64,000 nucleotides of DNA from positions 134,441-198,440 of the forward strand of contig CAVVCH010000061.1 in the NCBI GenBank assembly GCA_963746605.1, read 5' to 3'. Source of the DNA: an uncultured delta proteobacterium. Its GTDB lineage: Bacteria; Desulfobacterota; RBG-13-43-22. Below are positions 4,133-37,725 of the stretch, piece after piece (the first letter of the stretch is position 1; the number at the start of each line of letters is the position of its first letter). The position numbers and the translations under genes were made by a program. A model generated the notes under the pieces. The model was not told the origin of the DNA. It did not search any database and worked only from the letters and a program-made list of their open reading frames with translations.

Positions 4133-4369
4133 AGGCAGTTATATTTAAATGGCTAAATTCTTTTTCTTTTTTTGTTCCCCTTTTTCCGAATAGCAGTCGC
4201 TGGTGATTCTATATGTTTTGGATATCATGTGAAAAAGAAGACAAACTCGTCAAGGGAACAAGCAAAAATTCCGAGAGGAGGTGAACGGTTTTCTTTTCCA
4301 TCTAAAAGGTAAGACAGTCTTTCCTTCATATAAAATTGAAATAAAACCAAAAAAAGGGAGGTTTAACGA

Positions 4370-5681
4370 ATGAAACACAAAACACCCCTGCTGGATCAGT
4401 TAGAAAGCGGGCCCTGGCCAAGCTTTGTTTCGGACATCAAGCGGGAGGCCGAATCGCGGGCCAAGAACGAAAAAGGTGTGGATTTCCAGATCCCGGTCGA
4501 GGTTTGTGATGACATTCTGGGGGTGATGGAACTGACCTATGAACAAAAACGGACCCATTGGAAACACGGCGGAATCGTGGGTGTTTTCGGGTACGGCGGC
4601 GGGGTCATCGGCCGTTATTGCGACCAGCCGGAAATGTTTCCCGGCGTGGCCCATTTCCACACCATCCGGGTCAATCAACCGGGCGGGAAATATTATACCA
4701 CCGAATTCCTGAAGAAATTGTGTGATCTTTGGGATAAAAGGGGCAGCGGGCTGACCAACATGCACGGCTCCACCGGTGACATCATCCTCTTAGGGACCTA
4801 TACGCCACCAACTGGAAGAGGTTTTTTATGAGTTGACCCATGACTTCAACCAGGACCTGGGCGGGTCGGGCTCCAACCTGCGGACGCCTGCGGATTGCTT
4901 AGGCATGTCCCGCTGCGAATATGCCTGCTACGATACCATGGCCTTATGTTATGATCTGACCAATGAATACCAGGACTTCCTCCATCGGCCGGCCTTCCCT
5001 TACAAATTCAAATTCAAATTCGACGGCTGCCCCAACTGCTGTGTGGCTTCCATCGCTCGATCCGACATGTCTTTTATAGGAACGTGGCGGGATGACATCA
5101 AGGTCGACCAGGAAGCTGTCAAGGCCTATGTGGGCGGGGAGATTCCGGCCAATGCGGGGGCCTTCAAGGGAAGGGACTGGGGGGCTTTCGATATCAACGC
5201 CGAGGTCATCGACCTCTGCCCCACCAAATGCATGTCCTGGGACGGGAAGAAGCTGGGGATCTATACCCCGGAATGCACCCGCTGCATGCACTGCATCAAC
5301 GTCATGCCCAAGGCCCTGCGGGTGGGTGACGACCGCGGCGTGTCCATCCTGTTGGGCGCTAAAGCCCCTATTCTCGATGGCGCCCAGATGGGTTCCCTGG
5401 TGGTTCCTTTCATGAAAGTGGAGCCGCCCTATACGGAAATAAAAGAATTTATTGAGAAGGTCTGGGATTACTGGATGGAAGAAGGGAAAAACCGGGAACG
5501 CCTGGGCGAACTGATGAAACGTCAGGGTTTCCAGAAACTCTTGGAAGCCACCGGTCTGGAACCGATTCCGCAAATGGTCAAGGAACCCCGGACCAATCCC
5601 TATATTTTCTGGCGGGCGGATGAAGTTCCCGGCGGATTTGAACGCGACATCAAAGAATATCGCAAGCACCATCTGCGTTAG
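4370..5681 (+). pseudogene. dsrA: dissimilatory sulfite reductase alpha subunit DsrA, split by an apparent +1 frameshift near 4806-4811 into ORFs 4370..4831 and 4833..5681. This may be a sequencing artefact.
   Basis: N-terminus [56 protein letters not shown] and siroheme/Fe-S Cys motifs are hallmark DsrA. The 153+282 aa total equals normal DsrA length. Removing one C from ccaccaact restores ...[20 protein letters not shown]... Confidence 0.85.
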
Positions 5682-5694
5682 GAGGTGAGCACTC

Positions 5695-6837
5695 ATGCCA
5701 TACGATCCAAAAGAACCTTTAAAAGACAGAATCACCGACCTGGGACCGAGACATTACGAGGAGTTTCTTCCTCCGGTCATTAAAAACAACTACGGAAAAT
5801 GGGCCTACCATGAAATTCTGGAGCCCGGTATACTGGTGCACGTGGCTGAAAACGGTGACAAGGTTTTCACCGTTCGCGTCGGCGGTGCCCGGCTGATGAG
5901 CATCTCCCATATCCGGGAGCTCTGCGAAGTAGCCGACATACACTGCGACGGCCATCTGCGCTTCACCACCCGGAACAACATCGAGTTCATGGTGGATGAC
6001 CTGGCCAAGGTCGAACCCCTGAAGAAAGACCTGCTCGGTCGCAAACAGGCCGGCGGGGGCTTCAAGTTCCCTATCGGCGGGACTGGCGCCGGGATCACCA
6101 ATATCGTTCACACCCAGGGCTGGATCCATTGCCACACTCCGGCTACCGACGCCTCCGGCGTCGTCAAGGCGGTCATGGACGAATTGTTCGACGAATTCAC
6201 CAGCATGCGCATGCCGGCCCAGGTGCGGATTTCCCTGGCCTGCTGTCTCAATATGTGCGGCGCCGTGCACTGCTCGGACATCGCTATTTTGGGCTATCAT
6301 CGCAAACCGCCCATGGTCGATTGGGAAGTAATCGACAAGGTCTGTGAGATTCCTTTGGCCATCGCCGCCTGTCCGACGGCCGCCATTAAACCGGGCAAGT
6401 ACACCCGGGATGACGGGACCACGGCCCAGGGCGTCCAGGTGAATGCGGACCGCTGCATGTTTTGCGGCAACTGCTACACCATGTGCCCGGCCCTGCCCCT
6501 GGCCGACGACGTGGGCGACGGCATCGTGATCATGGCCGGCGGCAAAGTCTCCAACCGGATCAACCCGCCCAAGTTCTCCAAGGTGGTGGTGGCCTTTTTG
6601 CCCAATACCCCGCCCCGCTGGAAAGAAACCTCCGATTGCGTCAAGAACCTGGTGGAAGTATACGCCAAGGACGCCCGGAAATACGAGCGGGTGGGCGATT
6701 GGGCCGAGCGGATCGGGTGGGAGCGCTTCTTCGAGAAGACCGGCCTGCCTTTTACGCATCACCTGATCGACGACTTCCGTGATCCGGCCTATTATACGTG
6801 GCGACAGACCACGCAATATCGTTTTACTAATTCCTAA
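5695..6837 (+). CDS. dsrB: dissimilatory sulfite reductase beta subunit DsrB
   Basis: 380 aa with Cys clusters ([29 protein letters not shown]) typical of DsrB. Strong RBS GGAGGTG. Position directly after dsrA. Confidence 0.95.
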
Positions 6838-6856
6838 ACCAACCCCTTACCTATTT

Positions 6857-6899
6857 TCCCCTCCTCCTTCCCCCCGCCGGGGAATGGAGGAGGAGGGGA
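6857..6899 (+). terminator. strong GC hairpin (TCCCCTCCTCCTTCC...GGAGGAGGGGA) between dsrB and dsrD; no U-tract, so possibly an mRNA-stabilising or attenuating stem
   Basis: 11-bp perfect inverted repeat with an extension, read directly from the sequence. Confidence 0.3.
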
Positions 6900-6962
6900 A
6901 AGACAGCCATCGGAGAGCGCGTCTCATTCCATAGGGCTGAACACCAAGAAACGAGGGAAATC

Positions 6963-7199
6963 ATGGACGACGCCGAAGCCAAGAAATTTATCGTGGCGGA
7001 ACTGGAGAAAAAGAAGGGCAAGTCGAAATTCTATCTGAAGGATTTTTATGCTATGGTGCCCGACCGAAAAGCCAGGGAGGTGAACAAACTGGTCAACAAT
7101 ATGGTGCAGGAAGGGATTCTGGAGTACTGGTCCAGCGGCAGCACCACCATGTATGGGATCAAGGGCGCCGGCAAACAGCAGTCCGCCGAAGGGGAGTAA
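6963..7199 (+). CDS. dsrD: DsrD, the small winged-helix protein of dsr operons
   Basis: 78 aa, SKFYLKDFYAMVPDRKAREVNKLVNNMVQEGILEYWSSGSTTMYGIKG matches the conserved DsrD core. It sits after dsrB. Confidence 0.85.
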   Translation: MDDAEAKKFIVAELEKKKGKSKFYLKDFYAMVPDRKAREVNKLVNNMVQEGILEYWSSGSTTMYGIKGAGKQQSAEGE

Positions 7200-7255
7200 T
7201 CGGCTCTTTCTGAATACCTGGAATCCGTTGATCGGTTTTTTTTGCAGTTAACGCA

Positions 7256-8662
7256 ATGAATTCGCCCCGATTGGTGATGGCCGCCCTCCGCGGTGGAGCC
7301 GGGAAGACCGTGCTTACCATGGGCCTCCTGGCCGCCTGGCACGATCGGGGGATTAAGGTGGTACCCTTTAAGAAGGGTCCGGATTATATCGACGCCGGAT
7401 GGCTGGCCAAAGCGGCCGGACACCCCTGCTATAATCTGGACCCTTTTTTAATGGGGAAAAAGACCCTGCTGTCATCGTTCAAGAAAAGGTTCCTTGAGGG
7501 GGACCTGGCCTTGATTGAGGGCAACCGGGGAATCTTTGATGGGATCGATGCCCAGGGGACCTACAGCACCGCCCAGTTGGCCAAGTGGCTCCGGGTTCCG
7601 GTGGTCCTGATCCTCGACTGCACCAAGGCCACCCGGACCGTGGCGGCTATGGTTCTAGGTTGCCTGGCCTTTGATCCCGACCTGCCCCTAAAGGGGCTGA
7701 TTCTAAACCACATCGTTCGCAGTCGTCACGAGGCGGTTATCCGAAAGACCATCGAGCAGACCTGTGACCTGCCCATCCTGGGGGTGATTCCTCGGATGGG
7801 CGCCGGGCGTCTGCCCGAACGGCATCTGGGTCTGGTGCCTTTTCAGGAGCACCCCGAAGTGGAGCAAACCGTCCGCTTCACCCGGGAGATGGCTGAAAAG
7901 TACCTGGATTTGGCCGGACTCCAGGCCCTGGCCGGCCAGGCCCCGCCGCTGCCGGGGGGGGTGCCCCTTCCGACCGCTAAGGATAAGGGGAGGACGAAAA
8001 GACGTCCCCGGGTTGGAGTGATCCAGGATACGGCGTTTCAGTTCTATTACCCGGAGAACCTGGAAGCTCTGGAAGCCGCCGGGGCCGAGCTGGTTTTTCT
8101 GAATGCCCTTTCCGGGCAATTCCCCGGGAACCTGGAGGCCCTGTACATCGGCGGCGGTTTTCCGGAAACCCAGGCCGCCGACCTTTCCCAAAACAAGGGT
8201 TTTCGAAAAGGCCTGGCCGAGGCCATTGAGGCCGGTCTTCCGGTTTATGCCGAGTGCGGCGGTTTGATGTACCTGGGAAAAACCCTGATTTACCGGGGTG
8301 ACGCCTACCCCATGGTGGGCGTTTTTCCGTTTACCTTTTCACTGGAAAGGAAACCGCAAGGGCACGGCTACACCCGGATCAAGGTGGTCGAAGCCAATCC
8401 CTACTTCCCGCTGGGGACTGTCTTAAAGGGGCATGAATTCCACTATTCCCGGGTGATCGAGGGTGATTTGGAGGTCTGGAAAATGGCTTTTCAGATGAAC
8501 AAGGGGGAAGGATTGGATGGCCGGCGGGATGGCTTGATCTACAAAAATACCCTGGCCACCTATACCCATCTTCATGCCCTGGGAAGCCCGGAATGGGCTC
8601 GGGGTCTGGTTGCCAGGGCCGGGGGGCGCCCGGTTGGAAAAAGTCCTGCGGCCCTGGAATAA
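7256..8662 (+). CDS. dsrN: DsrN, a cobyrinic acid a,c-diamide synthase (CbiA/CobB) family amidase (siroheme amidation)
   Basis: N-terminal P-loop AAxxGAGKT, a CobQ/CbiA-type glutamine amidotransferase domain at the C-terminus (YAECGGLMYLG), and position after dsrD. Confidence 0.8.
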   Translation: MNSPRLVMAALRGGAGKTVLTMGLLAAWHDRGIKVVPFKKGPDYIDAGWLAKAAGHPCYNLDPFLMGKKTLLSSFKKRFLEGDLALIEGNRGIFDGIDAQGTYSTAQLAKWLRVPVVLILDCTKATRTVAAMVLGCLAFDPDLPLKGLILNHIVRSRHEAVIRKTIEQTCDLPILGVIPRMGAGRLPERHLGLVPFQEHPEVEQTVRFTREMAEKYLDLAGLQALAGQAPPLPGGVPLPTAKDKGRTKRRPRVGVIQDTAFQFYYPENLEALEAAGAELVFLNALSGQFPGNLEALYIGGGFPETQAADLSQNKGFRKGLAEAIEAGLPVYAECGGLMYLGKTLIYRGDAYPMVGVFPFTFSLERKPQGHGYTRIKVVEANPYFPLGTVLKGHEFHYSRVIEGDLEVWKMAFQMNKGEGLDGRRDGLIYKNTLATYTHLHALGSPEWARGLVARAGGRPVGKSPAALE

Positions 8663-8774
8663 GCATAAAATTCCTTGAAAAATTGTGGATTTTCCCTTGA
8701 CATTTTATTTAAAATAAGTCATGTATGGGCCACAAAACTTATTAACCATTAACATTATTGAGGAGGATGAAGGC

Positions 8775-9092
8775 ATGGCAACAATTGCATTTAAAGGACA
8801 TGACTTTAGTGTAGATGAAGACGGATTCATCGACGATTTCAATAGCTGGAACCGTGACTGGGTGGATTATGTAAAGGAATCCGAGGGGATCAAAGAACTG
8901 ACCGAAGAACACTGGAAGATCATCAATATCCTCCAGGATTATTACAAGAAAAATGGGATCGCCCCCATGGTTCGAATCCTTTCCAAGGTGACCGGATTCA
9001 AACTGAAATACATCTATGAACTGTTTCCTTCCGGACCGGGCAAAGGGGCCTGTAAGATGGCGGGGCTGCCCAAGCCTACCGGTTGCGTTTAA
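8775..9092 (+). CDS. dsrC: DsrC (TusE-like sulfur-transfer protein)
   Basis: C-terminal CKMAGLPKPTGCV penultimate-Cys arm is diagnostic of DsrC. Strong RBS GAGGAGGATGAAGGC before ATG 8775. 105 aa. Confidence 0.9.
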   Translation: MATIAFKGHDFSVDEDGFIDDFNSWNRDWVDYVKESEGIKELTEEHWKIINILQDYYKKNGIAPMVRILSKVTGFKLKYIYELFPSGPGKGACKMAGLPKPTGCV

Positions 9093-9104
9093 ACATTAGA
9101 ATCA

Positions 9105-9169
9105 CGGGGCAGGTGACGAGTAGCGGTTATCATACAAGGCTTTGAATTTCTGCCCCGGTACTCGTCACC
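9105..9169 (+). promoter_or_regulatory. structured dsrC-dsrT intergenic element with two crossing inverted repeats (CGGGGCAG/CTGCCCCG and GGTGACGAGTA/TACTCGTCACC)
   Basis: Segments A-B ... A'-B' are read directly. The two possible stems are mutually exclusive, which would suit an attenuator or processing site. Confidence 0.3.
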
Positions 9170-9175
9170 CCGCCC

Positions 9176-9718
9176 ATGGATCTGAACACATTTTTTAAAG
9201 AAAAAAAGTCTGCTTTCCTAAAACGGTGGTTCAACCTCATCGTGGAAACCTACCCCGATGAGACCACGCGGTTTCTGAAATACCAAAAAGATCGCTTTGC
9301 CAATCCGGTCGGTTATGCCTTGACGCAATCCCTCGACCGGTTATATGAAGAGGTTGTTTCCGGAGTGGACCCCGAGCGGGCCGCTCCGGCCTTGGATCAG
9401 ATTATACGGATTCGAGCCATACAAAACTTTTCCCCCTCCCAGGCGGTCGCCTTCGTCTTTTTTTTGAAAACCGTCATCCGCGATGCCCTGGAGGAGGAGA
9501 TTAGACAATCCGGGATCAAGGAAGAACTGCTGATCATCGAGACCCGCATCGACCAGTTGGCGCTGTTGGCCTTTGATCAGTACATGGCTTGCCGGGAAAA
9601 GCTCTATGACCTCAAGGCCAACGAACTTCGCCGGCAGACCCATCGACTGTTGCAGCGGGCCAAAATTATCGGGGAGCCCCCCGCCTCCGACCTGAACTCC
9701 GAAGAAGGTAACGTTTGA
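9176..9718 (+). CDS. dsrT: DsrT-like protein (RsbRD-N-like conserved protein preceding dsrMKJOP); assignment tentative
   Basis: 180-aa soluble ORF in the position dsrT occupies in dsrTMKJOP clusters of Desulfobacterota and Chlorobi. Called from context and size, not from a motif. Confidence 0.45.
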   Translation: MDLNTFFKEKKSAFLKRWFNLIVETYPDETTRFLKYQKDRFANPVGYALTQSLDRLYEEVVSGVDPERAAPALDQIIRIRAIQNFSPSQAVAFVFFLKTVIRDALEEEIRQSGIKEELLIIETRIDQLALLAFDQYMACREKLYDLKANELRRQTHRLLQRAKIIGEPPASDLNSEEGNV

Positions 9719-9748
9719 ACGGTTTAAAATAAAGGAGAGGGTAGGTCC

Positions 9749-10777
9749 ATGAATTTCATACTCAGTTTAATCATAGCGCTTGTGGTTGTTAACGTCCTGG
9801 TTATGATCCCCCTGGTAGGAATACTGGCGGCCAATATGCAATTTCTGTTCGGGGTGATCCTTCCCTACGCGGCGGTGCTGATTTTCCTGATCGGAATGAT
9901 CTGGCGGGTCACCACCTGGGCCAAGGCCCCGGTTCCCTTCCGGATCCCTACCACGGCGGGACAGCAAAAGACACTGCCCTGGATCAAGGACAGTAAATTG
10001 GACAACCCCACCACCACCGCCGGCGTCGTGGGGCGCATGCTCCTGGAAGTCCTGCTCTTTCGGTCGCTCTTCCGGAATACCAAAATGGAATACCGCGAAG
10101 GCCCCCGGGTCACCTATGAATGGGAAAAATGGTTGTGGCTGTTTGCGCTCGTTTTTCATTATGCCTTCCTGGTGGTTTTGATCCGGCATCTTCGTTTTTT
10201 TACCGAGCCCGTGCCGGTCTTCGTTCAAATCCTGGAATCGCTGGACGGTTTTGTCCAGATGGGGATCGCCCCCTTAAACGGACTGGGACTGCCGGTGATG
10301 CTGCTCAGCGGAGTGGTCCTCCCGGCGGCCGTTACCTTTCTGTTGCTTCGTCGCCTGCTGGTTCCCAGTGTCCGTTATATTTCCCTTCCGGCCGATTACT
10401 TTCCCCTGCTTCTGATCCTCGGCATTGCCACCACCGGAATTCTGATGCGGTACCTCCTTAAATTGGACGTGGTCGGCGTCAAACAGTTGATGATCGGTCT
10501 GGTGACCTTCAAGCCCGTGGTGCCCCAGGGGATCGGGGTCCTTTTTTATATCCATCTATTTATGATCTGCACCCTTTTTGCCTATTTTCCCTTCAGCAAG
10601 CTGGTCCATCTGGGCGGCATCTTTCTCAGCCCGACCCGTAACCTGGCCAACAACAACCGGATGGTCCGCCACGTGAACCCCTGGTGGTATCCGGTCAAGG
10701 TGCACACCTATGAACATTACGAGGATGAATTCCGAGAAAAAATGATTGAGGCTGGAATCCCAGTGGAAAAGGAGTAA
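9749..10777 (+). CDS. dsrM: DsrM, membrane di-haem b subunit (NarI-like)
   Basis: 342 aa, multiple TM helices with conserved His, good RBS AAAGGAGAGGG, followed directly by dsrK. Confidence 0.85.
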   Translation: MNFILSLIIALVVVNVLVMIPLVGILAANMQFLFGVILPYAAVLIFLIGMIWRVTTWAKAPVPFRIPTTAGQQKTLPWIKDSKLDNPTTTAGVVGRMLLEVLLFRSLFRNTKMEYREGPRVTYEWEKWLWLFALVFHYAFLVVLIRHLRFFTEPVPVFVQILESLDGFVQMGIAPLNGLGLPVMLLSGVVLPAAVTFLLLRRLLVPSVRYISLPADYFPLLLILGIATTGILMRYLLKLDVVGVKQLMIGLVTFKPVVPQGIGVLFYIHLFMICTLFAYFPFSKLVHLGGIFLSPTRNLANNNRMVRHVNPWWYPVKVHTYEHYEDEFREKMIEAGIPVEKE

Positions 10778-10779
10778 TC

Positions 10780-12417
10780 ATGGCCTTCAAGAATATTCCC
10801 AAGCCCAATGAATTAGCCCAGATCGGCCATAATCCCCCCTCGATGAAGGGCTGGATGGATGTCCCAGCGGATATCCGGCCGGGGATGTTTTGTTACGCCG
10901 GTCAGCCTAAGAATTTGGAGGCGGTGGGCCTGCCCAATCCGCGGAAATGGGCTCCGACCGATGACGACTGGCAACTGCCCGACAACTGGAAAGAGATATT
11001 CCTGGAGGGCATGCGGGAACGGTTGAAGAAGTATCGCACCTTCCAGATCTTCATGGACATCTGCGTCCGCTGCGGGGCCTGCGCGGACAAGTGCCATTTT
11101 TTCATCGGCTCCGGGGATCCTAAAAACATGCCGGTCCTGCGGGCCGAGCTGTTGCGCTCTATCTACCGGCGGGAGTTCACCGTCGCCGGAAAGCTGCTGG
11201 GAAAGATGGCCGGTGCCCGGGAGCTGACTCCCGAGGTATTGAAGGAAATCTGGCATTACATGTTCCAGTGTACGGAGTGCCGCCGCTGTTCCCTCTTCTG
11301 CCCCTACGGCATCGACACCGCTGAAATCACGATTATCGGCCGGGAATTGCTCAACCTGCTGGGGTTGAACATCGACTGGATCGCCGGGCCCGTGGCCAAC
11401 TGTTACCGGAAAGGAAATCACCTGGGCATCGAGCCCCATGCCTTTAAAGACATGATCGAGTTTTTCCTCGATGAGGTCGAGGGCGTTTGTGGGATCCGGC
11501 CGGAGCCGACCTTTAACCGCAAAGGGGCTGAAATCCTGTTCGTCACCCCTTCGGGTGACGTCTTTGCCGACCCCGGGACTTATACCGCCATGGGCTACCT
11601 GATGCTCTTCCATCAATTGGGACTGGATTACACCTGGAGCACCTATGCCTCCGAAGGCGGGAACTTCGGGTTTTTCACCTCCAATGAAATGGCCCAGCGG
11701 TTGAATTATAAGATCTACGCCGAGGCCAAACGCCTGGGGGTCAAATGGATCCTGGGCGGCGAGTGCGGCCACATGTGGCGCCTGATCCATCAATACATGG
11801 ACACCTGGAACGGGCCGGCGGATTTCCTGGAGGAACCGGTGTCGCCCATCACCGGGACTAAATTTGAAAATGCCAAGGCCACCAAGATGGTCCATTTGGT
11901 GGAGTTCACCGCCGACCTGATCCGGAACGGCAAATTGAAGCTGGATCCCAGCCGCAACGACAACCTGCGGGTCACGTTTCATGACTCCTGCAACACCGCC
12001 CGAGGCATGGGATTTTTCGAAGAGCCTCGATATGTCATCAAACACGTCTGTAATAATTTTTTTGAAATGCCGGAAAACACGATCCGGGAGCAGACCTTCT
12101 GCTGCGGCAGCGGCTCCGGGCTGAACGCCGGTGAGGATATGGAGCTGCGGATGCGGGGCGGGTTTCCCCGGGCCAATGCCGTCCGCTTCGTTCACGATAG
12201 GTTTGGGGTCAATATGCTGGCTAATATCTGCGCCATCGACCGGGCAGCCTTATCCACTTCCATGGAATATTGGGTTCCGGAGGTAGGGGTCACCGGGGTT
12301 CACGAGATGGTGGCCAATGCCCTGATCATGGACGGCGAAGGGGAGCGGACCACCGATCTGCGCGGGGAACCCCTGCCTGGATTCGAGGAAAAGGAGGAGG
12401 GCGAAGAAGATGTATGA
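10780..12417 (+). CDS. dsrK: DsrK, HdrD-like Fe-S catalytic subunit with CCG domains
   Basis: 545 aa with CVRCGACADKC, CTECRRCSLFCP and C-terminal CCG-type Cys motifs (TFHDSCNTARG, TFCCGSGSG). Confidence 0.9.
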   Translation: MAFKNIPKPNELAQIGHNPPSMKGWMDVPADIRPGMFCYAGQPKNLEAVGLPNPRKWAPTDDDWQLPDNWKEIFLEGMRERLKKYRTFQIFMDICVRCGACADKCHFFIGSGDPKNMPVLRAELLRSIYRREFTVAGKLLGKMAGARELTPEVLKEIWHYMFQCTECRRCSLFCPYGIDTAEITIIGRELLNLLGLNIDWIAGPVANCYRKGNHLGIEPHAFKDMIEFFLDEVEGVCGIRPEPTFNRKGAEILFVTPSGDVFADPGTYTAMGYLMLFHQLGLDYTWSTYASEGGNFGFFTSNEMAQRLNYKIYAEAKRLGVKWILGGECGHMWRLIHQYMDTWNGPADFLEEPVSPITGTKFENAKATKMVHLVEFTADLIRNGKLKLDPSRNDNLRVTFHDSCNTARGMGFFEEPRYVIKHVCNNFFEMPENTIREQTFCCGSGSGLNAGEDMELRMRGGFPRANAVRFVHDRFGVNMLANICAIDRAALSTSMEYWVPEVGVTGVHEMVANALIMDGEGERTTDLRGEPLPGFEEKEEGEEDV

Positions 12418-12806
12418 CAGCGGCAAGATCATCACGGGGATAGTCATTTTCGTCATTCTGGTGACTTTTCCGATCTGGTACAATCTGGGTCGGGCCACGC
12501 CGCCACCGGATCCCAAAATTGATACCCCGGTCATTCAGGCGCTGGCGGAAAAGAAGTGTATCGAACCGAAAAGCCAGATGAAATACACCCATATGAAGAT
12601 TCTGGATGAATGGCGCCATACGGTCGTGCGGACCCAGGAGCGGATTTATACGGCCGCCGACGGGAAGACAGTATGATATGAGCCTTCAGAATACCTGTAT
12701 GAAATGCCATTCCAACAAAAGCCAGTTCTGCGATCAGTGCCATAATTATTTGCAGGTCAAACCCTATTGCTGGGATTGCCACATCGCGCCAAAGGAGAAA
12801 AAGTAA
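12410..12806 (+). pseudogene. dsrJ: DsrJ tri-haem cytochrome c, interrupted by an apparent +1 frameshift near 12670-12676 (ORFs 12410..12676 and 12606..12806); possibly a sequencing artefact
   Basis: The N-terminal TM anchor plus ...TAADGKTV are in frame 2. Three CxxCH motifs (CMKCH, CDQCH, CWDCH) follow in frame 0. Combined length ~132 aa fits DsrJ. Confidence 0.8.
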
Positions 12807-13582
12807 TGGGCCTCAATCGAAGAGATTTCCTGAAAATAGCCGGGATTTCCAGCCTCATGGGGCTGGGAGGGAAGGCGGCGCTGGAGGTCCTCCGGCCGGG
12901 GGAGTTGGAGGCGTCCCTGCCCCTCGCCCCTCCGATCGCAGCCAAGCACTGGGCCATGGTCATCGATACCCGGAAGCTTAAAACCGAAGAAGATTTTCAG
13001 CGGTGTATCGATGCCTGCCACCGGACGCACAATGTGCCCAAAATTCCCAGTGCCAAGGAAGAAATCAAGTGGATTTGGACGGAGGCCTATAAAAACGCCT
13101 TTCCCGACGATGAACACGAATACGTAGCCGAAGCGGTGGAGCATAAAAAGTTTTTAACCTTCTGCAACCACTGCACCAATCCCCCTTGTGTCCGGGTTTG
13201 TCCCACCAAGGCCACTTTTAAACGGGCCGACGGGATCGTCATGATGGACTTTCACCGGTGCATCGGCTGCCGGTTCTGTATGGCCGGCTGTCCCTACGGT
13301 TCCCGGAGTTTCAACTGGGGGGACCCGCGCCGTTACCTCAAGGAACCCACCAATCCGGCTTTTCCAACGCGCGCCAAGGGGGTGGTGGAGAAATGTAATT
13401 TCTGTGAGGATCGTTTGGCCAAGGGACAAAATCCGGCCTGTGTGGAGGCCTCCAACGGGGCCCTGGTGTTCGGCGATTTAGCCAATCCGAATTCCGAGGT
13501 CAGGAAGCTGCTGAAAGAGAATTATTCGATTCGCCGTAAACCCGGTCTGGGAACGTATCCCAACCTTTTCTATTTGGTATGA
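12806..13582 (+). CDS. dsrO: DsrO, periplasmic Fe-S subunit with a Tat signal
   Basis: MGLNRRDFLKIAG twin-arginine signal and four-Cys ferredoxin motifs (CNHCTNPPCVRVCP, CIGCRFCMAGCP, CNFCEDR). The start overlaps the dsrJ stop (TAATG). Confidence 0.85.
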   Translation: MGLNRRDFLKIAGISSLMGLGGKAALEVLRPGELEASLPLAPPIAAKHWAMVIDTRKLKTEEDFQRCIDACHRTHNVPKIPSAKEEIKWIWTEAYKNAFPDDEHEYVAEAVEHKKFLTFCNHCTNPPCVRVCPTKATFKRADGIVMMDFHRCIGCRFCMAGCPYGSRSFNWGDPRRYLKEPTNPAFPTRAKGVVEKCNFCEDRLAKGQNPACVEASNGALVFGDLANPNSEVRKLLKENYSIRRKPGLGTYPNLFYLV

Positions 13583-13589
13583 GGTGGTT

Positions 13590-14759
13590 ATGTTCGAGAA
13601 AGCGCTTACAGGAAGCAAGGGATATTATACATGGTTGGCCTTCTTGGGGATTTTTATCGCCACCGGAGTGGCCTGCTACCTCTATCAATTTAACGAGGGC
13701 CTGCGCATCACCGGATTGAGCCGGGATGTCTCCTGGGGTTTCTATATCGCCCAATTTACCTTTCTGGTCGGGGTGGCGGCGTCGGCGGTCATGCTGGTGT
13801 TGCCCTATTACCTGCATGACGTCAAGGTTTTTGGCAAGATTACCATCCTGGGTGAATTCCTGGCCATCGCTTCGGTGACCATGTGTCTGCTTTTTATCTT
13901 TGTGGACCTCGGCAACCCCGTGCGGATCTTGAACGTCATCCTCTACCCGACGCCCAATTCCATCCTCTTCTGGGATATGATCGTGCTGAACGTGTATTTG
14001 ATCCTCAATATCCTGATCGGCTGGAATGTCCTGGCTGCGGAACGCAAGGCCGTGGCCCCGCCCCGATGGGTCACCCCCCTGATCTACCTTTCCATCCCCT
14101 GGGCCGTCAGCATTCACACGGTCACGGCGTTCCTCTACGCCGGCCTTCCGGGGCGCCATTTCTGGCTCAGCGCCATTATGGCGGTCCGCTTTCTGGGGTC
14201 GGCCTTTGCCGCCGGCCCGGCCCTGCTGGTGCTCCTGGCCCTGATCGTCCGCCGGGCCACCGGGTTTGATGCCGGCAACGAGGCCCTGAAAAAATTGATC
14301 AACATCATCACCTACGCCATGCTGGCCAGTATCTTCTTCGTCATCCTGGAGCTATTCACCGCCTTCTACAGCCAGATCCCGGGTCATATGCATGCCTTCC
14401 AATATCTCTTCTGGGGATTGGAAGGCCATAACAAATACACCACCTGGACCTGGATTTCCGTGTGCATGGGGCTGACCTCGGCCCTGCTGCTGGTCATCCC
14501 CTGGACCCGGAACAAGATGGGTATTGCCGCCATAGCCTGCTTCGGCGTGTTTGGTTCCTTGTGGATTGAAAAGGGGCTCACCCTGGTGGTCACCGGCTTT
14601 ATCCCCAACCCGCTGGAAAAGGTGGTCGAATATGCCCCCACCGCCCCGGAGATTTTCATCGCCTTGGGGGTCTGGGCCACCGGTTTTCTGGTGTTGACCC
14701 TCTTGTATAAGATTGCCATCTCCGTAAAGCTGGATCCCAACAGCGCTTCTGTACATTAA
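13590..14759 (+). CDS. dsrP: DsrP, NrfD/PsrC-like integral membrane subunit
   Basis: ~390 aa, about ten predicted TM helices, last gene of dsrMKJOP. ATG 13590 preferred over GTG 13584 because of SD spacing. Confidence 0.85.
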   Translation: MFEKALTGSKGYYTWLAFLGIFIATGVACYLYQFNEGLRITGLSRDVSWGFYIAQFTFLVGVAASAVMLVLPYYLHDVKVFGKITILGEFLAIASVTMCLLFIFVDLGNPVRILNVILYPTPNSILFWDMIVLNVYLILNILIGWNVLAAERKAVAPPRWVTPLIYLSIPWAVSIHTVTAFLYAGLPGRHFWLSAIMAVRFLGSAFAAGPALLVLLALIVRRATGFDAGNEALKKLINIITYAMLASIFFVILELFTAFYSQIPGHMHAFQYLFWGLEGHNKYTTWTWISVCMGLTSALLLVIPWTRNKMGIAAIACFGVFGSLWIEKGLTLVVTGFIPNPLEKVVEYAPTAPEIFIALGVWATGFLVLTLLYKIAISVKLDPNSASVH

Positions 14760-14774
14760 TACATCTGCTTGAAA

Positions 14775-27442: not shown

Positions 27443-27515
27443 GCCTAAAGGACTTTATTCCGGATTCCAATTCCAGAATTCCAACCCTACACTATCTTGA
27501 TAAGGAGGACCTTTC

Positions 27516-27810
27516 ATGGACGATGTGTATAAAAACAATGCCCCCCGGGAATTCCCAACCCTCAAGCCCAACCGGAAATCAAGGAGAAAAAAGCCGTCAG
27601 GCTGGAGACGATGAAAGTCTCCGAGCTTAAGGAAACAGTGTCCCGCTGGAAGAAGGATATCCTGGACCGTATTCAGTTTCTGAAGGAGAATTATGACCAG
27701 GCTCTACAGGACAAGGGAGCGTTGACTTGGAGGTGGATAAGTGGAAGGCCGAACTGACCGCTTCGGAATTCCGGGTCCAGGAACTGGAAAGACAATCGTG
27801 GCCGAGGTGA
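27516..27810 (+). pseudogene. decayed coiled-coil ORF readable only across three frames (…EIKEKKAVRLETMKVSELKETVSRWKKDILDRIQFLKENYDQALQDKGALT / LEVDKWKAELTASEFRVQELERQSWPR)
   Basis: A protein-like heptad sequence is split by at least two frameshifts. No intact ORF longer than 50 aa. Confidence 0.3.
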
Positions 27811-27939
27811 TGGAAGACCTATAAAGTAATTTACTCAAGGGAGGTAACGCCGGCGCCTTGCTTCAAGGAAGTAGTACCGGCGCTTTGCAGAGATTACGAT
27901 TGCAGGCGGCGTTCCAGAATGGGGTGCAGGATTATCGAT

Positions 27940-28040
27940 TCTTACACCCTCCGTCCAGCGCCGAATTCGGTGATGTCAGGGACGACCACGTCGCTGTGCA
28001 GGGAGCGGCTAATCCGCTATGGTTGGTCTTGGTCGATTCC
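27940..28040 (-). pseudogene. acyl-CoA dehydrogenase gene fragment (~35 codons), paralogous to the N-terminal region of the ACAD at 29219..30361, with an internal frameshift
   Basis: ~80% nucleotide identity to 30061-30130. Encodes ...TKTNHSGLAAP then, in another frame, LHSDVVVPDITEFG, against ACAD TKTNHSGLAAPLHSDVVVPYLTEFG. Confidence 0.5.
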
Positions 28041-28554
28041 GGTGGATGGAAAGCCAGGGGTAAGGGGAGGTTGAAAATGGAATGTTTATCCTGATACTTA
28101 AGGTGGTTCGTCTGGCAATATAAGCCCCCATCAATATTATTGTGGTGCCGACGGCTGAGCCAACCAGGCCATTGGACCGCGATGGTGCGCACATGGGCCT
28201 TGGCCCGGCACGCTCGGGCCATGGTCAACCGATTGACGTCTCGTCCAAAGACAGAGGAGGTGCGGATGATTACCGTATTACAGGATACTGCAAAGCCAAA
28301 CTCGGACGAAGGCAGATCTATGAGCACCGCGAAGAAGACGAGGTACAGGATTGGCTCGGAAGACGCGGCTTCAAGACGGGACCAGTAGATTGGCACTGGA
28401 AGATACAGCTGAATGGATTCAAGAGTTCAGCGATCTATGGAACCGAGAATCAGGGGCTAGGTCCTGAAAGAGGAGCGCAATGGCAACAAGCCAATCCGGC
28501 CGACTCCGACCAATATTGATGATTTTCTCGTTGGATTTCAGAAAGAATGAACCG

Positions 28555-28897
28555 ATGAAGATTATCTCAAACCGTGCCGCCATCATCGTCAGGGCGAAAG
28601 CTCCTTTTGTTGAGTGGGTTCAAAGCGCCGATGCCGACAGCTCCCATATCACTACCGAGGAAGTCAACGAAGACCCTAACGTATACTTGATCTACGATCC
28701 AAAGAAGGAAGGCGAGATCGACATCGATTGATCGCGAAGAACTATCGTGAGATTTTCGAAGAGGAATTGAATAGCTGGTTCACAGACGAGTCCTGTGGCC
28801 AGAAGAGGGACCTTAAAACATTCCGGCAATGGTTTCAGGTTGATTTCCATGGCATGGTGGTAGATCTCAGCGAAGAAGACTTCTACACCGAAGAATG
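28555..28897 (+). pseudogene. hypothetical ~113-aa ORF interrupted by a frameshift/stop near 28728-28735 (MKIISNRAAIIVRAKAPFVEW...GEIDID | IAKNYREIFEEELNSWFTDESCGQ...)
   Basis: Two consecutive protein-like segments in different frames. No family recognised. Confidence 0.3.
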
Positions 28898-28930
28898 AAA
28901 AAATCGAGCCGCTTGACTACCTTCGCCATA

Positions 28931-29213
28931 TCAAGGTGGAGGTAGAGTCGGCGCCCTGCCTTGACTACCTAAAAATTTTCCTGTGTCTTTAAAAAAGTCG
29001 CTGATATAGGAGATTTTTCCCTCCTCGAACTCCATCAGGGTCACCCCCTCATTCTCGTAGGGTTCCCCGCGTCGGTTTTTCCCTCGATTGCTCCAATGGA
29101 CCGCTCCCCGGTTCCCCTGAACAATGGTCCGGTGAACGGTGAAGACCAACTCCGGGTATTGGCGGAAGAGGATCTGGAGTGAAAAAGTCAGAAATGAGTT
29201 TTTCGGCATTCAC
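28931..29213 (-). pseudogene. SnoaL-like/NTF2-fold protein remnant whose N-terminal segment (GTG start, NAEKLISDFFTPD) is in a different frame from the body; short and likely disrupted
   Basis: C-terminal ...GEPYENEGVTLMEFEEGKISYISDFFKDTG matches the SnoaL-like C-terminus. A frame change near 29170. Starts 5 nt after the ACAD stop. Confidence 0.35.
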
Positions 29214-30361: not shown

Positions 30362-30513
30362 AGTCCATTTTCCTTTTTGTATTTACGGGTAATTTCTCGT
30401 CATCCCCGAAGGTCTTTATCGGGGATCCACTGTTCCTTAAGAAAAGCCTGGATTCCCGCTCAGAAGCGTTGCGGGAATGACGCTTTATGAGGTGGTATCT
30501 ATTGTGAAACCAT

Positions 30514-30867
30514 TTATAAAATCGGGACCGGATAGCGGTTCCCGTCCCGGTCATAAAAAATCACTCTCCCGGTTCTTTTCCAGAGGGTTTCGTCCATGAA
30601 ACAATAGAAGGCCTTGATTTCCCCCGGTTCGATGCGCAGGTCTCCCGAGGGCACGAGGTGGTCAAACCTCCGGATCCCTCCGGAAGTTTCCAGGTCGAAA
30701 TGGCTGGGCACAACCAATCGGGGCCAGAGCCCTGGTTGGTAAGATGGATTTCCAGGTTCTGGTCGAACATCTTCAGCCCGCAGCAGGTTTTGAAGCTCAA
30801 GATGTCTTCGGCCGAAGAGTTCATGATGAAACGGATTTCGAGCATGTGGTATTTTTCTCAGCAGCAA
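30514..30867 (-). pseudogene. DUF35 (zinc-ribbon/OB-fold, BbsA/ChsH2-C-like) thiolase-partner protein, N- and C-terminal parts in different frames (ATG 30845 frame, then the 30867..30514 frame)
   Basis: C-terminal LVVPSHFDLETSGGIRRFDHLVPSGDLRIEPGEIKAFY resembles the DUF35 OB-fold. ...SFKTCCGLKMFDQ sits in the other frame. A terminator-like hairpin (30522-30548) and T-rich tract overlap the stop. Confidence 0.45.
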
Positions 30868-30869
30868 TT

Positions 30870-32089: not shown

Positions 32090-33430
32090 TTAGAATTTAA
32101 ACAGCTTTTCTATCAGTTGGGATTTCATCAGATCCCCTTCGATTTTCAGTTTTCCGCTAGTGAAGGCCTGCATGGCCGGCAATTGACCGGTGATCAGCCC
32201 CAGAAAGTCGGCATCGGCCATGTGGATGGTGGTGGTCGGCTTTGCATGAAGCCCCGGGCCTACGGTGCAGGAGGCCTCTTTGATCACCGCCTGCCAATCC
32301 CCGCCCTCGGGCCCGGAGATCCGGAACTGGAAGACCACGTCCACCCCGGCCGCTTTTTCGGCCTGAAAGGCCTCCGGCATCCGCTCGAACACGGACCGAA
32401 CCGTAGGTCCGGAGGGTGAGGATTTGGCCGCCTCCGGCTCCCTTTGCCCGCCGGTCAGCATTTCTCCCAGGGCCGCGGTGGCATTGTAAAATTCCTTTCC
32501 TCCTACGAGGGTGTTGATGGCCGTCCAATTTTGGTGAACCTCTTCCGGGGTAGGGACATTCCCTCCTTCACCGATCAGGATTCCCGGCCCGGAAACGATC
32601 GCCGCCTTGTTGAAATACCCCGCCCCGGCGTTGAAGACCTGGCCGGTCTCGGCGCAGGCGGCGGAGCAGAGATAGATGACCAAGGGGGCCGACGAATTCG
32701 GGTTTAAGTCTTTCAAAGAGATCGGGGGGCAGGATGTCTTCGGTCAGGCGAGTGGCGGCGATAGGGGCCACGGTGTTGACCTTGATGTTGTATTTCTCGC
32801 CCTCCAGTTTCAAGGTGTTCATCAAGCCCACCAACCCCAGTTTGGCTGCCGAATAGTTGGCCTGTCCGAAATTGCCGAACAAACCGGCGGCCGAGGTGGT
32901 CAGGACGATTCGGCCGTATTGCTGTTCCCGCATCTGCCGGAGCGCCGGCCGGGTGACATAATAGGCCCCATCCAGATGGACGGAGAGGACCTGATTCCAA
33001 TCCTCGGAGTCCATCTTGAGCAGGGTCTTGTCCCGGAGGATTCCGGCGTTGTTGATCAGGATATCCACGCGGCCAAAGGTCTCCAGGGCTTTCTCGACAA
33101 TGGCTTCGCCGCCTGCGGGAGTGGATACGGAATCGTAACTGACCACGGCTTCGCCGCCCAGGGCCTTGATTTCTTCAACCACCCTGTCAGCCGGACCGGT
33201 AGAACCAGTGCCGGAACCGTCCCGGGAGCCGCCCAGATCGTTCACCACCACTTTCGCTCCGCGCTTGGCCAAGTCCAGGGCATAGGTCCGACCCAGACCG
33301 GCCCCGGCCCCGGTGACGATCGCCACCTGACCGTCAAATCGGATTTCGGCCTTTTTTTCCTCTGTTGTCGGCGGCTTGACCGGCAGAGGCACGGCTTTCC
33401 AGAAGTAGCCGGAGAACCCGCGGTCCTTAT
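32090..33430 (-). repeat. paralogous SDR+SCP2 module; partner at ~34926..36210 in the adjacent gene (~85-90% amino-acid identity)
   Basis: Near-identical stretches, e.g. RVDILINNAGILRDKTLLKM...GRIVLTTSAAGLFGNFGQANYSAAKLGLVGLMNTLKLEGEKYNIKVN.VAPIAATRLTEDILPPDLF.RLKPE, occur in both proteins. Confidence 0.6.
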
Positions 33431-34826
33431 CGGTGTACCGCTTCCGGAAAGAGAGCCTGACCGGCTGGCCGACCCAGACTTCGGCCAGTTCGCAATCGGT
33501 AAAATCGGCCATGAACCGCCCCCCGTCATCAAATTGGATCATGCCGTAGACTGCCGGCGGGTCGACAGAAACCGTCAACAGGTCTCCGGTAAAGGTCTTG
33601 ATAAAGGCCGATTTTTCGGCAAACTCGTACTCTTCCTGGGTATGGAATTTCCGGCAGTCCGGGTTGACGCAGATATCCATTTTTGGAAACTGAGGGGTGC
33701 CGCAGGCCGTACAGCGGCCGCCCACCAGGCCGAGGATCATCTGCCGTTTCCGATAGAGGACGGTCATGGCCGTCTGCGTGGGGGCCTCGGCCCTGATCCC
33801 CATCTCGGTCTGGATCAGGTCTCGGAACTTGAGGAATTTGGGATATTGGTCGATCGTCTTTTTGTTCTTCAGAGACCCTTCAATCCCCACCCGAGGGGCT
33901 AGATTTAGGATATGCTCGGTCACCCGGAAATACAGCGCGTCGCAGCCCTGTCCGAAACCGGCCAGCAGGATCCGATCTCCAGGCTTGGCCTGCTCCAGGG
34001 CTTGGGTAAACAGGACCAGGGGATGGGCGGCGCCGGTTTCCCCGCAGACCTCGTGGAGGTTGTCCTGAACTTTTTCCGGAGCAGCCCCCAGTTTCTTGGC
34101 GATGTTGCGGTGTTCGGCCTTGAAGAAGCAGGGGAAAACAAGCTTATCCACGTCGTCCATGGTGATGGACAGTTTTTCAGGAGACCGTTTACCGCCGCGG
34201 GGATGATCTTGGCCATATCCTTCATCCCGGACCCAGCGCTCTTCCCACATGTAATCGTATTTGTTTTGGGAGCCGCGGTAGTGATCGATAAAATCCAGAG
34301 AGAGGCTATAAGAACCCAGGAATTCAGCAATTACGCTGCTATTGCCGACCAGGAGTGAGGCGGCCCCGTCGCCGAACCACATCTCATAAAAATAGGCGGC
34401 CTTGGTCTCCCGCTTGTCGGCCGCGGTGACCAGGATGCTTTGGGGGACGCCTTCCCGAAGGGAGTTCAAGGCGGTGATCAGCGCGCTGGTGCCGGAACGA
34501 AGGGAGGCGGTAACGTCCTGGGTCAGCAGGTCATCCCGAAGGTTCAGGGCCGTTTTGACAATAGCGGCGTTGAGGCGGTCGGCAAAGGGCAGCGTGGTGG
34601 AGCACAGGTAGAGGGCCTCCATCGCCGATTTATCCGCTCCCTTCAGGCAGTCCTGCGAGGCGGCAACGGCCATGGTCAGGCTGTCTTCATCCCAGTTGCA
34701 GAAAGAACGCTCACCCTGGGCGACCATGACGATGGCCGGGGCAAACCAGCCCATTTCCTGAAAGATGCTCATGCGGTTTAGACGGAGCCGGGGAAGGTAG
34801 CCGCCGTAGGATACGATGCCGATCAT
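32090..34826 (-). pseudogene. four-domain fusion (HMG-CoA-synthase-like + DUF35 + short-chain dehydrogenase + SCP2 sterol-carrier), interrupted by a +1 frameshift at the G5 run 32683-32687 (ORFs 32568..34826 and 32090..32716)
   Basis: N-terminal MIGIVSYGGYLPRLRL is the HMGCS start. CTACGT...NPDCRKF...VWVGQPVRLSFRK is DUF35. TGAGAGLG...YSAAK is SDR. The C-terminus continues in the other frame as PLVIYLCSAACAETG...GKLKIEGDLMKSQLIEKLFKF (SCP2). Deleting one G restores EFVGPLVIYLC, matching the paralog RLKPEYVTPLVLYLC. Confidence 0.75.
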
Positions 34827-34925: not shown

Positions 34926-37032
34926 TCAGAACTTAAAAAGTTTTTCTATGAGCTGGGATTTCATCAGGTCGCCTTCAATTTTCAGTTTGCCCGAGGTGTA
35001 GGCCTGCATGGCCGGCAGTTTTCCGGCCATCAAATCCAGGAAATCTTCGATCCGACATTTTAATGAGGGTCGTCGGTTTTTCGTGGAGCCCCGGGGTGGT
35101 AGTACAGGTCGCGTCTTTGATGGCGGTAAACCAATCTCCCCCGCCCGCTCCGGAAATCCGGAATTGAAAAACCACGTCCACCCCGGCGGCCTTGTCGGCC
35201 TGAAAGGCCCGGGGCATCTCATCAAAAACCGACCGAACGGTGGCCCCGGGGGCCTCGACCGGCGCCGCCTCGGTTGGGGAGGGGGGGCCGGTCAATAGGA
35301 CGCCCAAGGCCTCGGTGGCATTGTAAAATTCCCGGGCCCCGGTCATCCGGAGAATGTCCGGCAGGCGGGCGGAAAGGCTCTCGGGAGAAGGGATCTGGTG
35401 CCCGTCGCTGAGCATTACCCCGGGACCGGAAAGTACGGCGGCCCGATTGAAAAAACCCATCCCGGCATTATAGACCGCGCCGCTCACCGGGCATTGTTCG
35501 GCGCAGAGGTAGAGGACCAGCGGGGTTACGTATTCGGGTTTGAGCCGGGCGAAAAGATCGGGGGGCAGGATGTCCTCGGTCAGACGGGTGGCGGCGATGG
35601 GGGCCACGGCGTTGACCTTGATGTTGTATTTTTCGCCCTCCAGTTTCAACGTGTTCATCAAGCCCACTAACCCCAGCTTGGCCGCCGAATAGTTGGCCTG
35701 CCCGAAATTGCCGAACAGACCGGCCGCCGAGGTGGTCAGGACAATTCTTCCGTACCCCTGTTCCCTCATCCTTTGGAAGGCTGCCCGGGTTACGTAGAAG
35801 GCCCCGTCCAGATGAACGGCCCGGACCTGTTCCCAATCCGCTTTCTCCATTTTAAGCAGGGTCTTGTCGCGCAGGATGCCGGCATTATTGATCAGGATAT
35901 CCACGCGGCCAAAGGCTTCGACGGCCCGCCGGGTGATGGCTTCCCCGCCTTCCGGGGTCGATACGGAATCGTAGCTGGCCACGGCCTCACCGCCCAGGGC
36001 CATAATTTCCGCAACCACCCGGTCCGCCGGACCGGCCGATCCGGTCCCGGATCCATCCCGAGCGCCGCCCAGGTCATTGACCACCACCCGTGCGCCTCGC
36101 CGGGCCAGTTCCAGGGCGTAGGCCCGGCCTAACCCGGCCCCGGCGCCGGTGACGATGGCCACCCGGCCGTCCAGGCGAATCTCCATCTTTGGGGTCTCCC
36201 CATATTCGAAGATTCCCTGGTCAATGACCACCTCGCCTGTCTCGGCGTTGATGACCCGCCAGAGGGCCTTCCCTTCGTCCACCCGCCAGATCTGGGTTTT
36301 GATGGCGTTCCCGGGATAAAGCGGGCTGCGGAAACGATTGGCCATCCGTCGTACCTTCTCCGGGGCGCCCGGGACCAGTTGCCGGATCAAGGCCCGGGAA
36401 GCATAGCCGTGGGTGCAAAGGCCGTGCATGATGGGTCGGGTAAAACCGGCCGTCTTGGCAAATTCCAAATCCACGTGCAGGGGGAAGATGTCCCCGGAAA
36501 GACGGTAAATCAGCGGCTGATCGACCGGGGGGGTAGCCGGCACCTCAAAATCCGGAGGTCGTTCCGGGAACGAAATGGCATTCTTAGGGGCATCTTCCCC
36601 GCCAAAGCCCCCGTCCAAACGTGCCAAGACGGTAACGATGCTGGTGAAAAGTTTTCGGCCGCCTTCATTCCGGGTGTCAAACTCGGCCACGATCAGCGCT
36701 CCCTTGTCGGGGCCTTTGTCGTAATAATGGGTGATGGCCCCCTCGGTTATCAGTTTTCCCTCCGAAGGGATGGGCTGGTGAAAGATCAACTCCTGCCCGG
36801 CGTGAAGAATTCCCGCCAGGTTGACATTGCTGATGGAGGCCAACTCCGGCATGAAATCGTACAGCGTCACAATGCCAAAGCTCGGCAAGACCCTGAGGTC
36901 CTTTTCGTAACAGTAGTCTAGATCGGAAAAACCCGCACCCACGCCCAGGGCATAGAGGACCGTGTCCTTCCAGGTATAGTCCTTGGAAAAGGGGCCGATC
37001 TTTTTTCCAATGCTGTCCAAGTTAAGGGCCAT
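34926..37032 (-). pseudogene. MFE-2-like fusion (2x MaoC hot-dog hydratase + SDR + SCP2), C-terminal SCP2 end displaced by a 1-nt insertion near 35058 (ORFs 34975..37032 and 34926..35225)
   Basis: N-terminal YTWKDTVLYALGVGA is the hydratase-2 N-domain, then TGAGAGLG...YSAAK (SDR). The tail ...TLIKMSD then shifts to EDFLDLMAGKLPAMQAYTSGKLKIEGDLMKSQLIEKLFKF, identical in sequence to the paralog's C-terminus. Confidence 0.75.
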
Positions 37033-37077: not shown

Positions 37078-37725
37078 TTAGGGGCTGTCGGCCCGGTTTT
37101 CTCCCCCTCTGTCGAAGGCCGGGATCAAGATATATTTCAAGGTCTCTTTGGCCAGCGCCATGTATTCCGGACGTTCGATCTTAAGGAGCGACCGAAAAAA
37201 GGTTTCCCCGGAAATAAAATTATGAATGGCATTCATGATGACCAGGACCTGCATTTTAACGGAAACGGAGACGCTTTCCTTGTCCCGGCTGAGACCCATG
37301 GAGCGGGCGATATCGGAAATGAATTCCGGAACCCTGAAATCCAGGCTGGTTTCAGGGCGGGTCTTTCCGAAATATCGAAAAAGGACCAGGTTGGATATTT
37401 CCGGGTGTTGGAAGAGAAAGGCCACAATCCGGTCGATGGAAATGTCCATTCTCTGGGCCAGGGGCCGCCCGTGGATTATTTTTTCCACGGCCACCAGTTG
37501 CTGGCGCAAGTCCTCGTTGATATCCAGGACCACGGCCTCGTAGAGGTCCCCTTTTTCGCCCCAATGGTAATACAGCGTGGAAATGTCAATACCCACCCGT
37601 TGGGCGATCATGCGGGTGGTCGTTCCATGATAGCCGTATTCACCAAAAAGCTGCCGGGCTATCTTGAGGATCCGGGCCTTCATGGATTCCGGATCCCGCC
37701 GGGCTTTTTCCAAAGGGGTGCTCAC
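37078..37725 (-). CDS. TetR/AcrR-family transcriptional regulator
   Basis: N-terminal HTH ARILKIARQLFGEYGYHGTTTRMIAQRVGIDISTLYYHW. It is the first gene of the minus-strand cluster. Confidence 0.8.
   Translation of the reverse strand: MSTPLEKARRDPESMKARILKIARQLFGEYGYHGTTTRMIAQRVGIDISTLYYHWGEKGDLYEAVVLDINEDLRQQLVAVEKIIHGRPLAQRMDISIDRIVAFLFQHPEISNLVLFRYFGKTRPETSLDFRVPEFISDIARSMGLSRDKESVSVSVKMQVLVIMNAIHNFISGETFFRSLLKIERPEYMALAKETLKYILIPAFDRGGENRADSP

Follow-up and report, generated by a model that had tools for sequence, protein, structure and literature searches.

A surplus base that splits dsrA in an uncultured Desulfobacterota contig: a probable consensus error

Introduction

The gene dsrA encodes the catalytic alpha subunit of dissimilatory sulfite reductase. 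In the window analyzed here, a 64,000-nucleotide stretch of a contig from an uncultured delta proteobacterium, this gene does not read through in one frame. Read literally, the sequence would mark the organism as one that cannot respire sulfate or sulfite and would encourage accounts of a switch to syntrophy or fermentation. Has the organism lost the enzyme, or has the assembly misrepresented the gene? A sequence-only reading of the window had offered both options, a base-calling or assembly indel and a very recent inactivation. Indels found across the contig and in sister assemblies favor the former, and little was found to support the latter.

Results

dsrA is split by exactly one surplus base

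Translation, together with a four-way alignment of the window with three relatives (L090, L086, and L001; the alignment spans positions 4333 to 14760), revealed that exactly one surplus base separates the two parts of dsrA. The deposited window sequence contains no single uninterrupted dsrA frame because of the extra base at 4804 (Table 1). The initial claim that the frame is broken by a single extra base was borne out by the translation, by the Pfam pieces, and by the alignment column at 4804 that only the window occupies. By tblastn, residues 1 to 146 of the L001 DsrA match window positions 4367 to 4804; past approximately Thr145, frame A continues as out-of-frame junk (PPTGRGFL). Frame B is open from 4794 to a stop codon at 5679 to 5681 and shares 38 nt (4794 to 4831) with frame A. 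Frame B holds the Cys motifs CLGMSRC...CPNCC and CPTKC...CTRCMHC, and the same Cys columns are found in 2xsj_A. In DsrAB structures, these motifs are assigned to the siroheme-coupled [4Fe-4S] cluster and the ferredoxin-type cluster. Once repaired, DsrA is 436 aa long and aligns to 2xsj_A over residues 2 to 436 without a gap (E = 1.6e-241); 2v4j_A matches it over residues 2 to 436 as well.

The split is also seen in the gene calls. A 282-aa protein from a 331,705-bp contig (P0133; NCBI and ENA) begins at the TTG codon at 4833 and is the product of window ORF 4833 to 5681 except for the start residue. Just upstream of the dsrA ribosome-binding site, the window has one A more in an A-run (position 4349) than L001, L086, and L090. 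This intergenic extra A could be natural length variation or a further consensus error.

Table 1. Features of the window discussed in the text, with the lesions located in them
Feature	Position	Strand	Description
dsrA, 5' part	4370..4831	+	Frame A; 153 codons, then UGA; NIR_SIR_ferr (Pfam)
dsrA, extra base	4804	+	G4804 most parsimonious; context AC[G]CC; deletion gives TATACCCACCAACTGG
dsrA, 3' part	4805..5681	+	Frame B (+1); NIR_SIR (Pfam)
dsrB	5695..6837	+	Intact, 380 aa
dsrD	6963-7199	+	Intact
dsrN-like CobB/CobQ-type amidase	7256-8662	+	Intact
dsrC	8775-9092	+	Intact; both C-terminal cysteines present
RsbRD_N-domain gene	9176-9718	+	Intact, 180 aa; between dsrC and dsrM
dsrM	9749-10777	+	Intact
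dsrK	10780-12417	+	Intact
dsrJ	12410..12806	+	Broken; extra A at 12668, GGGAAG[A]CAGTATG
dsrO	from 12806	+	Intact; start taken at TAATG overlap with dsrJ
dsrP	13584-14759	+	Intact in the window; broken in L086
Gene Y, thiolase-like/OB-fold-SDR-SCP2	32090..34826	-	Three single-base indels
Gene X, hydratase-SDR-SCP2 (MFE-2-like)	34929..37032	-	+1 near 35046, CGA[A]GAT
TetR-family gene	37078..37725	-	Last ~16 codons shifted; -1 near 37108, beside C5 run

The dsr cluster around dsrA

The dsr cluster in the window is a canonical reductive one, with dsrB, dsrD, dsrC, and dsrMKJOP near dsrA. As the sequence-only reading had noted, dsrJ is also broken, by the extra A at 12668, and the remaining dsr genes (dsrB, D, N, C, and MKOP) are whole. 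At the dsrJ site, L001, L086, and L090 read GGGAAG-C and lack the extra A. Once repaired, dsrJ encodes 131 aa, as it does in L086, and its three CxxCH heme motifs are all downstream of the break. The RsbRD_N-domain gene occupies the same dsrC/dsrM interval in L001, L081, L086, and L090; it may correspond to dsrT.

Relatives carry dsrA in one frame

Scanning a genome collection with the intact DsrB gave 80 loci. In tblastn searches, the repaired DsrA matched in one frame at every locus with a full-length dsrA (approximately 70). The comparison with the dsrA of relatives, to which the first reading had pointed, was thus clear: about 70 genomes or contigs have a single frame, and only the window has the extra base. 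Among the closest relatives, the DsrB of L001 is 95% identical to that of the window, and the DsrA proteins of L086 (P0001) and L087 are 97% and 98% identical, respectively, to the repaired window DsrA. Three further relatives, L088 to L090, are JGI metagenome contigs.

We also searched for a second copy of the locus from the same strain. Exact-protein look-ups with the window DsrB, the 153-aa DsrA fragment, and P0133 matched no record. Exact look-ups with DsrC and DsrD led to five contigs of 1 to 2 kb from other metagenomes (L081 to L085; 91 to 98.5% nucleotide identity), none of which reaches 4804. A metagenome pattern scan that tolerated 0 to 2 extra bases at the break yielded three contigs, none of them with the extra base. 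These are only 84 to 91% identical to the window and so do not belong to the same strain. Neither the protein look-ups nor the pattern scan found a same-strain contig covering 4804.

Identity of the extra base

At the break, the window reads TATACGCCACCAACTGG, and its closest relatives read TATAC-CCACCAACTGG (GTYTHQLEE). All seven relatives whose DNA was read at the site (L001, L003, L086, L087, L088, L089, and L090; 84 to 93% nucleotide identity to the window) have TATACCCACCAACTGG, and position 4804 is the sole window-only column there in the four-way alignment. At the protein level, eight sequences of the 90% DsrA cluster extend over the site, and all eight have GTYT-H-QLEE. Since the close relatives uniformly carry TATACCCACCAACTGG, G4804 is the most parsimonious extra base. 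Equivalently, C4805 or C4806 could be removed, which would leave a synonymous ACG codon, an allele seen in none of the close relatives compared. Without the extra base, positions 4799 to 4809 would read TATACCCACC (or TATACGCACC). The sequence-only reading had dropped one C to obtain TPQLEE. That correction does restore the frame, but the choice of base and the resulting Pro do not stand, as the relatives point to G4804 and to His. Pro at the restored position is common in more distant DsrA proteins; the close relatives have His.

The junction also bears on the idea that full-length DsrA is made from the split gene by programmed +1 ribosomal frameshifting or transcriptional slippage. A +1 shift within the 38-nt overlap would in principle give the full-length product, and a T6 run is present at 4821 to 4826. 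Homology, however, changes frame at ACG/CCA (4802 to 4807), which places the required +1 shift between approximately 4800 and 4808. At this junction, UAU ACG CCA CCA, no P-site tRNA could re-pair in the +1 frame (UAU-A, ACG-C, CCA-C), and frame A does not reach its stop until 24 nt downstream. If slippage occurred on the T6 run, the conserved HQLEEV would be swapped for PPTGRG; all 12 relatives displayed have QLEE. Moreover, the split is found in 0 of approximately 70 relatives and is therefore not conserved, and the six other indels in the contig (see below) would each need a special explanation. We consider recoding of this kind extremely unlikely.

Selection on dsrA

The dN/dS of the repaired dsrA was 0.029 in comparison with L086, 0.031 with L087, and 0.055 with L001. 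These values are no higher than those among the intact dsrA genes of the relatives themselves (0.044 to 0.062). We counted 23 substitutions unique to the window dsrA; 21 are silent, and the other two change an amino acid (A29S and I245V). No second lesion was found in dsrA. With a dN/dS of approximately 0.03, the repaired gene shows strong purifying selection, and no sign of relaxed selection or decay was found. The suggestion of a syntrophic or fermentative lifestyle receives no support from a dN/dS near 0.03 and a gene in which only 2 of 23 lineage-specific substitutions are nonsilent.

These figures also concern the possibility of a genuine, very recent frameshift, with dsrA a nascent pseudogene in the strain or in a sub-population. 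A gene that had just been inactivated would show a low dN/dS too, and the insertion does stand in the deposited sequence. If the break in dsrJ were real as well, the organism would be left without dissimilatory sulfite reduction. Nevertheless, the rest of the dsr cluster (dsrB, dsrD, dsrN, dsrC, and dsrMKOP) is whole, purifying selection on the terminal branch of dsrA is strong, and no relative shares the lesion.

Further single-base indels in the window

Over the approximately 33 kb of the window that could be compared with relatives, we detected at least 7 coding indels in five unrelated genes. dsrA aside, at least 6 single-base indels fall in four other genes: dsrJ, two adjacent paralogous genes encoding SDR and SCP2 domains (genes X and Y), and a TetR-family gene. 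The breaks in X and Y were flagged by a codon-usage frame plot and by Pfam, which placed the SCP2 and SDR domains in different frames. Their indels were located by comparing the two paralogues with each other and with a syntenic relative, L091 (contig_93717, 189,580 bp).

In gene X, the SCP2 domain is divided between two frames. The repaired product has 701 aa, and so does each of the nine closest intact homologues (P0136 to P0144). The SCP2 domain is present in these nine and in nearly all other X homologues among the matches listed. An inserted C creating GATC, which the Y paralogue had suggested, was rejected because the L091 orthologue shows an extra A instead. The truncated gene X product of the window corresponds to P0135 (685 aa), from the 331,705-bp contig. 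Since P0133 and P0135 are both truncated products on that contig, the frameshifts are part of the deposited sequence.

Gene Y contains an extra base at approximately 32692, or in the G-run at 32684 to 32688, that throws the SCP2 part into another frame. Farther upstream in the gene, a +1 at approximately 34213 and a -1 at approximately 34177, 36 nt apart, put 12 codons out of frame. Over these codons the alternative frame reads AKIIPAAVNGLLK, and L091 reads AKIIPQAVNGLFQK; the differences are at third codon positions. After repair, gene Y encodes 911 aa, as does its L091 orthologue. Genes X and Y share a closely similar SDR-linker-SCP2 module (34929 to 35640 and 32093 to 32800, respectively, both on the minus strand). 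The two proteins end in the same 21 residues, a hint of recent duplication or gene conversion. In the TetR-family gene, the frame of the C terminus was judged against the L091 orthologue.

Insertions make up five of the seven indels, and several of the seven are not in homopolymers. Such mainly inserted, partly nonhomopolymeric indels differ from the error profile classically seen with nanopore data. Suspected frameshifts at 19.8 to 21.3, 22.5 to 23.3, and 24.9 to 26.6 kb were rejected, as Pfam shows complete separate genes there: the overlapping ORF pairs are, in that order, ABC ATPase/PxpB, FeMo-cofactor-like protein/NifU, and RuvA/RuvB. By ORF length, Pfam coverage, and frame plot, no broken ORF was found in the 15- to 27-kb and 47- to 64-kb regions. 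The 21-kb part with ribosomal protein genes and rpoBC has 0 broken ORFs by ORF length, where the rate in the other parts would predict approximately 2 to 4.

Decay confined to the dsr pathway was rejected, since the frame plot and the comparisons with paralogues and orthologues show breaks in unrelated genes. The dsr cluster takes two of the seven indels, which would fit a genuine inactivation, but the other five fall in unrelated genes (the two SDR-SCP2 genes and the TetR gene), and the closely spaced +1/-1 pair in gene Y resembles sequence noise. Were every break genuine, very recent disruption would have struck about 5 of about 60 genes, without other decay.

The pattern of insertion is also relevant to a variant of the artifact in which strain heterogeneity is the source, the assembler or polisher having kept both alleles of a synonymous single nucleotide polymorphism (SNP) side by side. 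We regard this variant as unlikely, and the same holds for the SNP doublets that it would imply, ACC/ACG (Thr) in dsrA and AAG/AAA (Lys) in dsrJ. In both dsr genes, the inserted base adjoins a third codon position, and deletion of either base gives a synonymous codon. By our rough estimate, though, a random insertion fits this pattern about 1 time in 3. With the orthologues as a guide, the lesions in X (CGA[A]GAT) and Y (G[T]CG or C4 to C5) fit it poorly, and the close relatives have no ACG allele.

Indels in sister assemblies

Lesions of the same kind are found in related assemblies. In L001 (MFD05442.bin.2.211), a nanopore-only metagenome-assembled genome (MAG) of the Microflora Danica collection, a CxxCxxCC gene contains the insertion CCT[A]TCC, outside any homopolymer, at approximately 1150 (window position 746); this gene is unbroken in both the window and L086. 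L086 (contig_6166) has an additional C in the tail of dsrN (CC to CCC; window position 8612) and lacks a C in dsrP (CC to C; window position 14050), which is called as two ORFs of 154 and 226 aa. Other ENA contigs yielded DsrA fragments that are truncated (P0134 and P0132), as well as truncated homologues of gene X (P0158, P0160, and P0197). No coding indels were found in L087, L088, L089, and L090 within the regions that they share with the window. Assembly type was taken from contig names, which are Flye-style (contig_N) for L086 and short-read-style for L087 and L088 to L090. The sister contigs with Flye-style names carry indels of their own in different genes, and those with short-read-style names have none in the shared regions.

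The sequence-only reading was right that the AC[G]CC context of the dsrA insertion is not a homopolymer. As an argument against an error, and hence for a genuine frameshift, this context has little force because nanopore-only L001 shows the same type of insertion. Like lesions in the sister long-read MAGs also fall in different genes, and we consider a genuine frameshift in dsrA improbable. The Microflora Danica MAGs are nanopore-only assemblies made with Flye and one round of Medaka (PMC12313526). Bins from R10.4 data with less than approximately 40-fold coverage still require short-read polishing, and residual indels produce frameshifted gene calls (Sereika et al. 2022, PMC9262707).

Other observations in the window

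Comparison with L091 revealed further differences. A SnoaL-like ORF at 28931 to 29209 (minus strand; 92 aa) matches only positions 46 to 101 of the SnoaL_2 model. The corresponding gene in L091 encodes 118 aa. Relative to it, 113 + 35 nt are absent at the 5' end in the window, perhaps because of a real deletion or because the gene is truncated. The adjacent stretch of approximately 1.5 kb (27458 to 28930) has no convincing ORF and no Pfam match. At the syntenic place, L091 has a BrnT/BrnA-type toxin-antitoxin pair and a methyltransferase gene, and the stretch looks like a variable island between the parA-like and acyl-CoA dehydrogenase genes. At 30361 to 30870, a 144-aa ORF that L091 has between its thiolase and acyl-CoA dehydrogenase genes is absent (gaps of 442 and 172 nt), and a 117-aa ORF without a Pfam match remains.

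The window contains two copies of tuf (EF-Tu), at 43073 to 44272 and 59724 to 60923, which differ at 3 of 1,200 nt. One copy follows a tRNA cluster (Thr, Tyr, Gly, and Thr), and the other follows fusA, the usual tufA/tufB arrangement.

Discussion

The extra base in dsrA is, with a probability of about 0.88, an indel error in the consensus of a long-read metagenome assembly. It is one of at least 7 scattered single-base errors, which argues for a consensus artifact and against a biological loss of sulfate respiration. The source of the contig in a long-read MAG is suggested by its size of 331,705 bp, by the databases that hold it (NCBI and ENA), and by the nature of its closest relatives. We propose that the wrong base arose in consensus calling, during base-calling or polishing, and that the contig comes from an unpolished nanopore-type assembly, probably of modest coverage, as its closest relatives do. 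Most likely, dsrA is intact and functional in the organism itself.

The other outcome would be of greater biological consequence. We think it highly improbable that the insertion is real and that dsrA, dsrJ, and the two beta-oxidation-type SDR-SCP2 genes were inactivated very recently in the population. If this were true, a Desulfobacterota lineage would have been caught just as it begins to lose dissimilatory sulfite reduction, with the rest of its dsr cluster not yet decayed.

With a consensus error as the preferred reading, the break in dsrA is most likely an ordinary finding and not a real biological feature, and its value is that of a warning. The contig has about one gene-breaking indel per 5 to 10 kb. 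Frameshift-aware annotation or polishing is needed wherever metabolism is inferred or pseudogenes are counted from this contig and from the sister long-read MAGs, and dsrA, dsrJ, and both SDR-SCP2 genes are to be treated as intact.

Three known systems can be set beside this locus. Full-length DsrA could be made from the window only by a +1 shift, as is the case for prfB, which encodes RF2. Unlike prfB (CUU-UGA-C), the window has neither a slippery codon nor a stop codon in frame where the shift would occur, and it lacks both an upstream Shine-Dalgarno-like stimulator and conservation in relatives. Like nanopore-only MAGs with frameshifted gene calls, the window has isolated indels that split conserved, unrelated genes (PMC9262707 and PMC12313526). 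The literature on such MAGs stresses homopolymer indels, whereas several of the window lesions are insertions outside homopolymers. Finally, the solved DsrA structures (2v4j_A, from Desulfovibrio vulgaris, and 2xsj_A) show what the repaired gene would encode. As deposited, the window gene amounts to a 153-aa ORF and a called 282-aa fragment, whereas the repaired protein is colinear with the solved DsrA and has the same domain architecture, and its gene lies in the canonical context, a dsrABD-N-C-(RsbRD_N)-MKJOP cluster.
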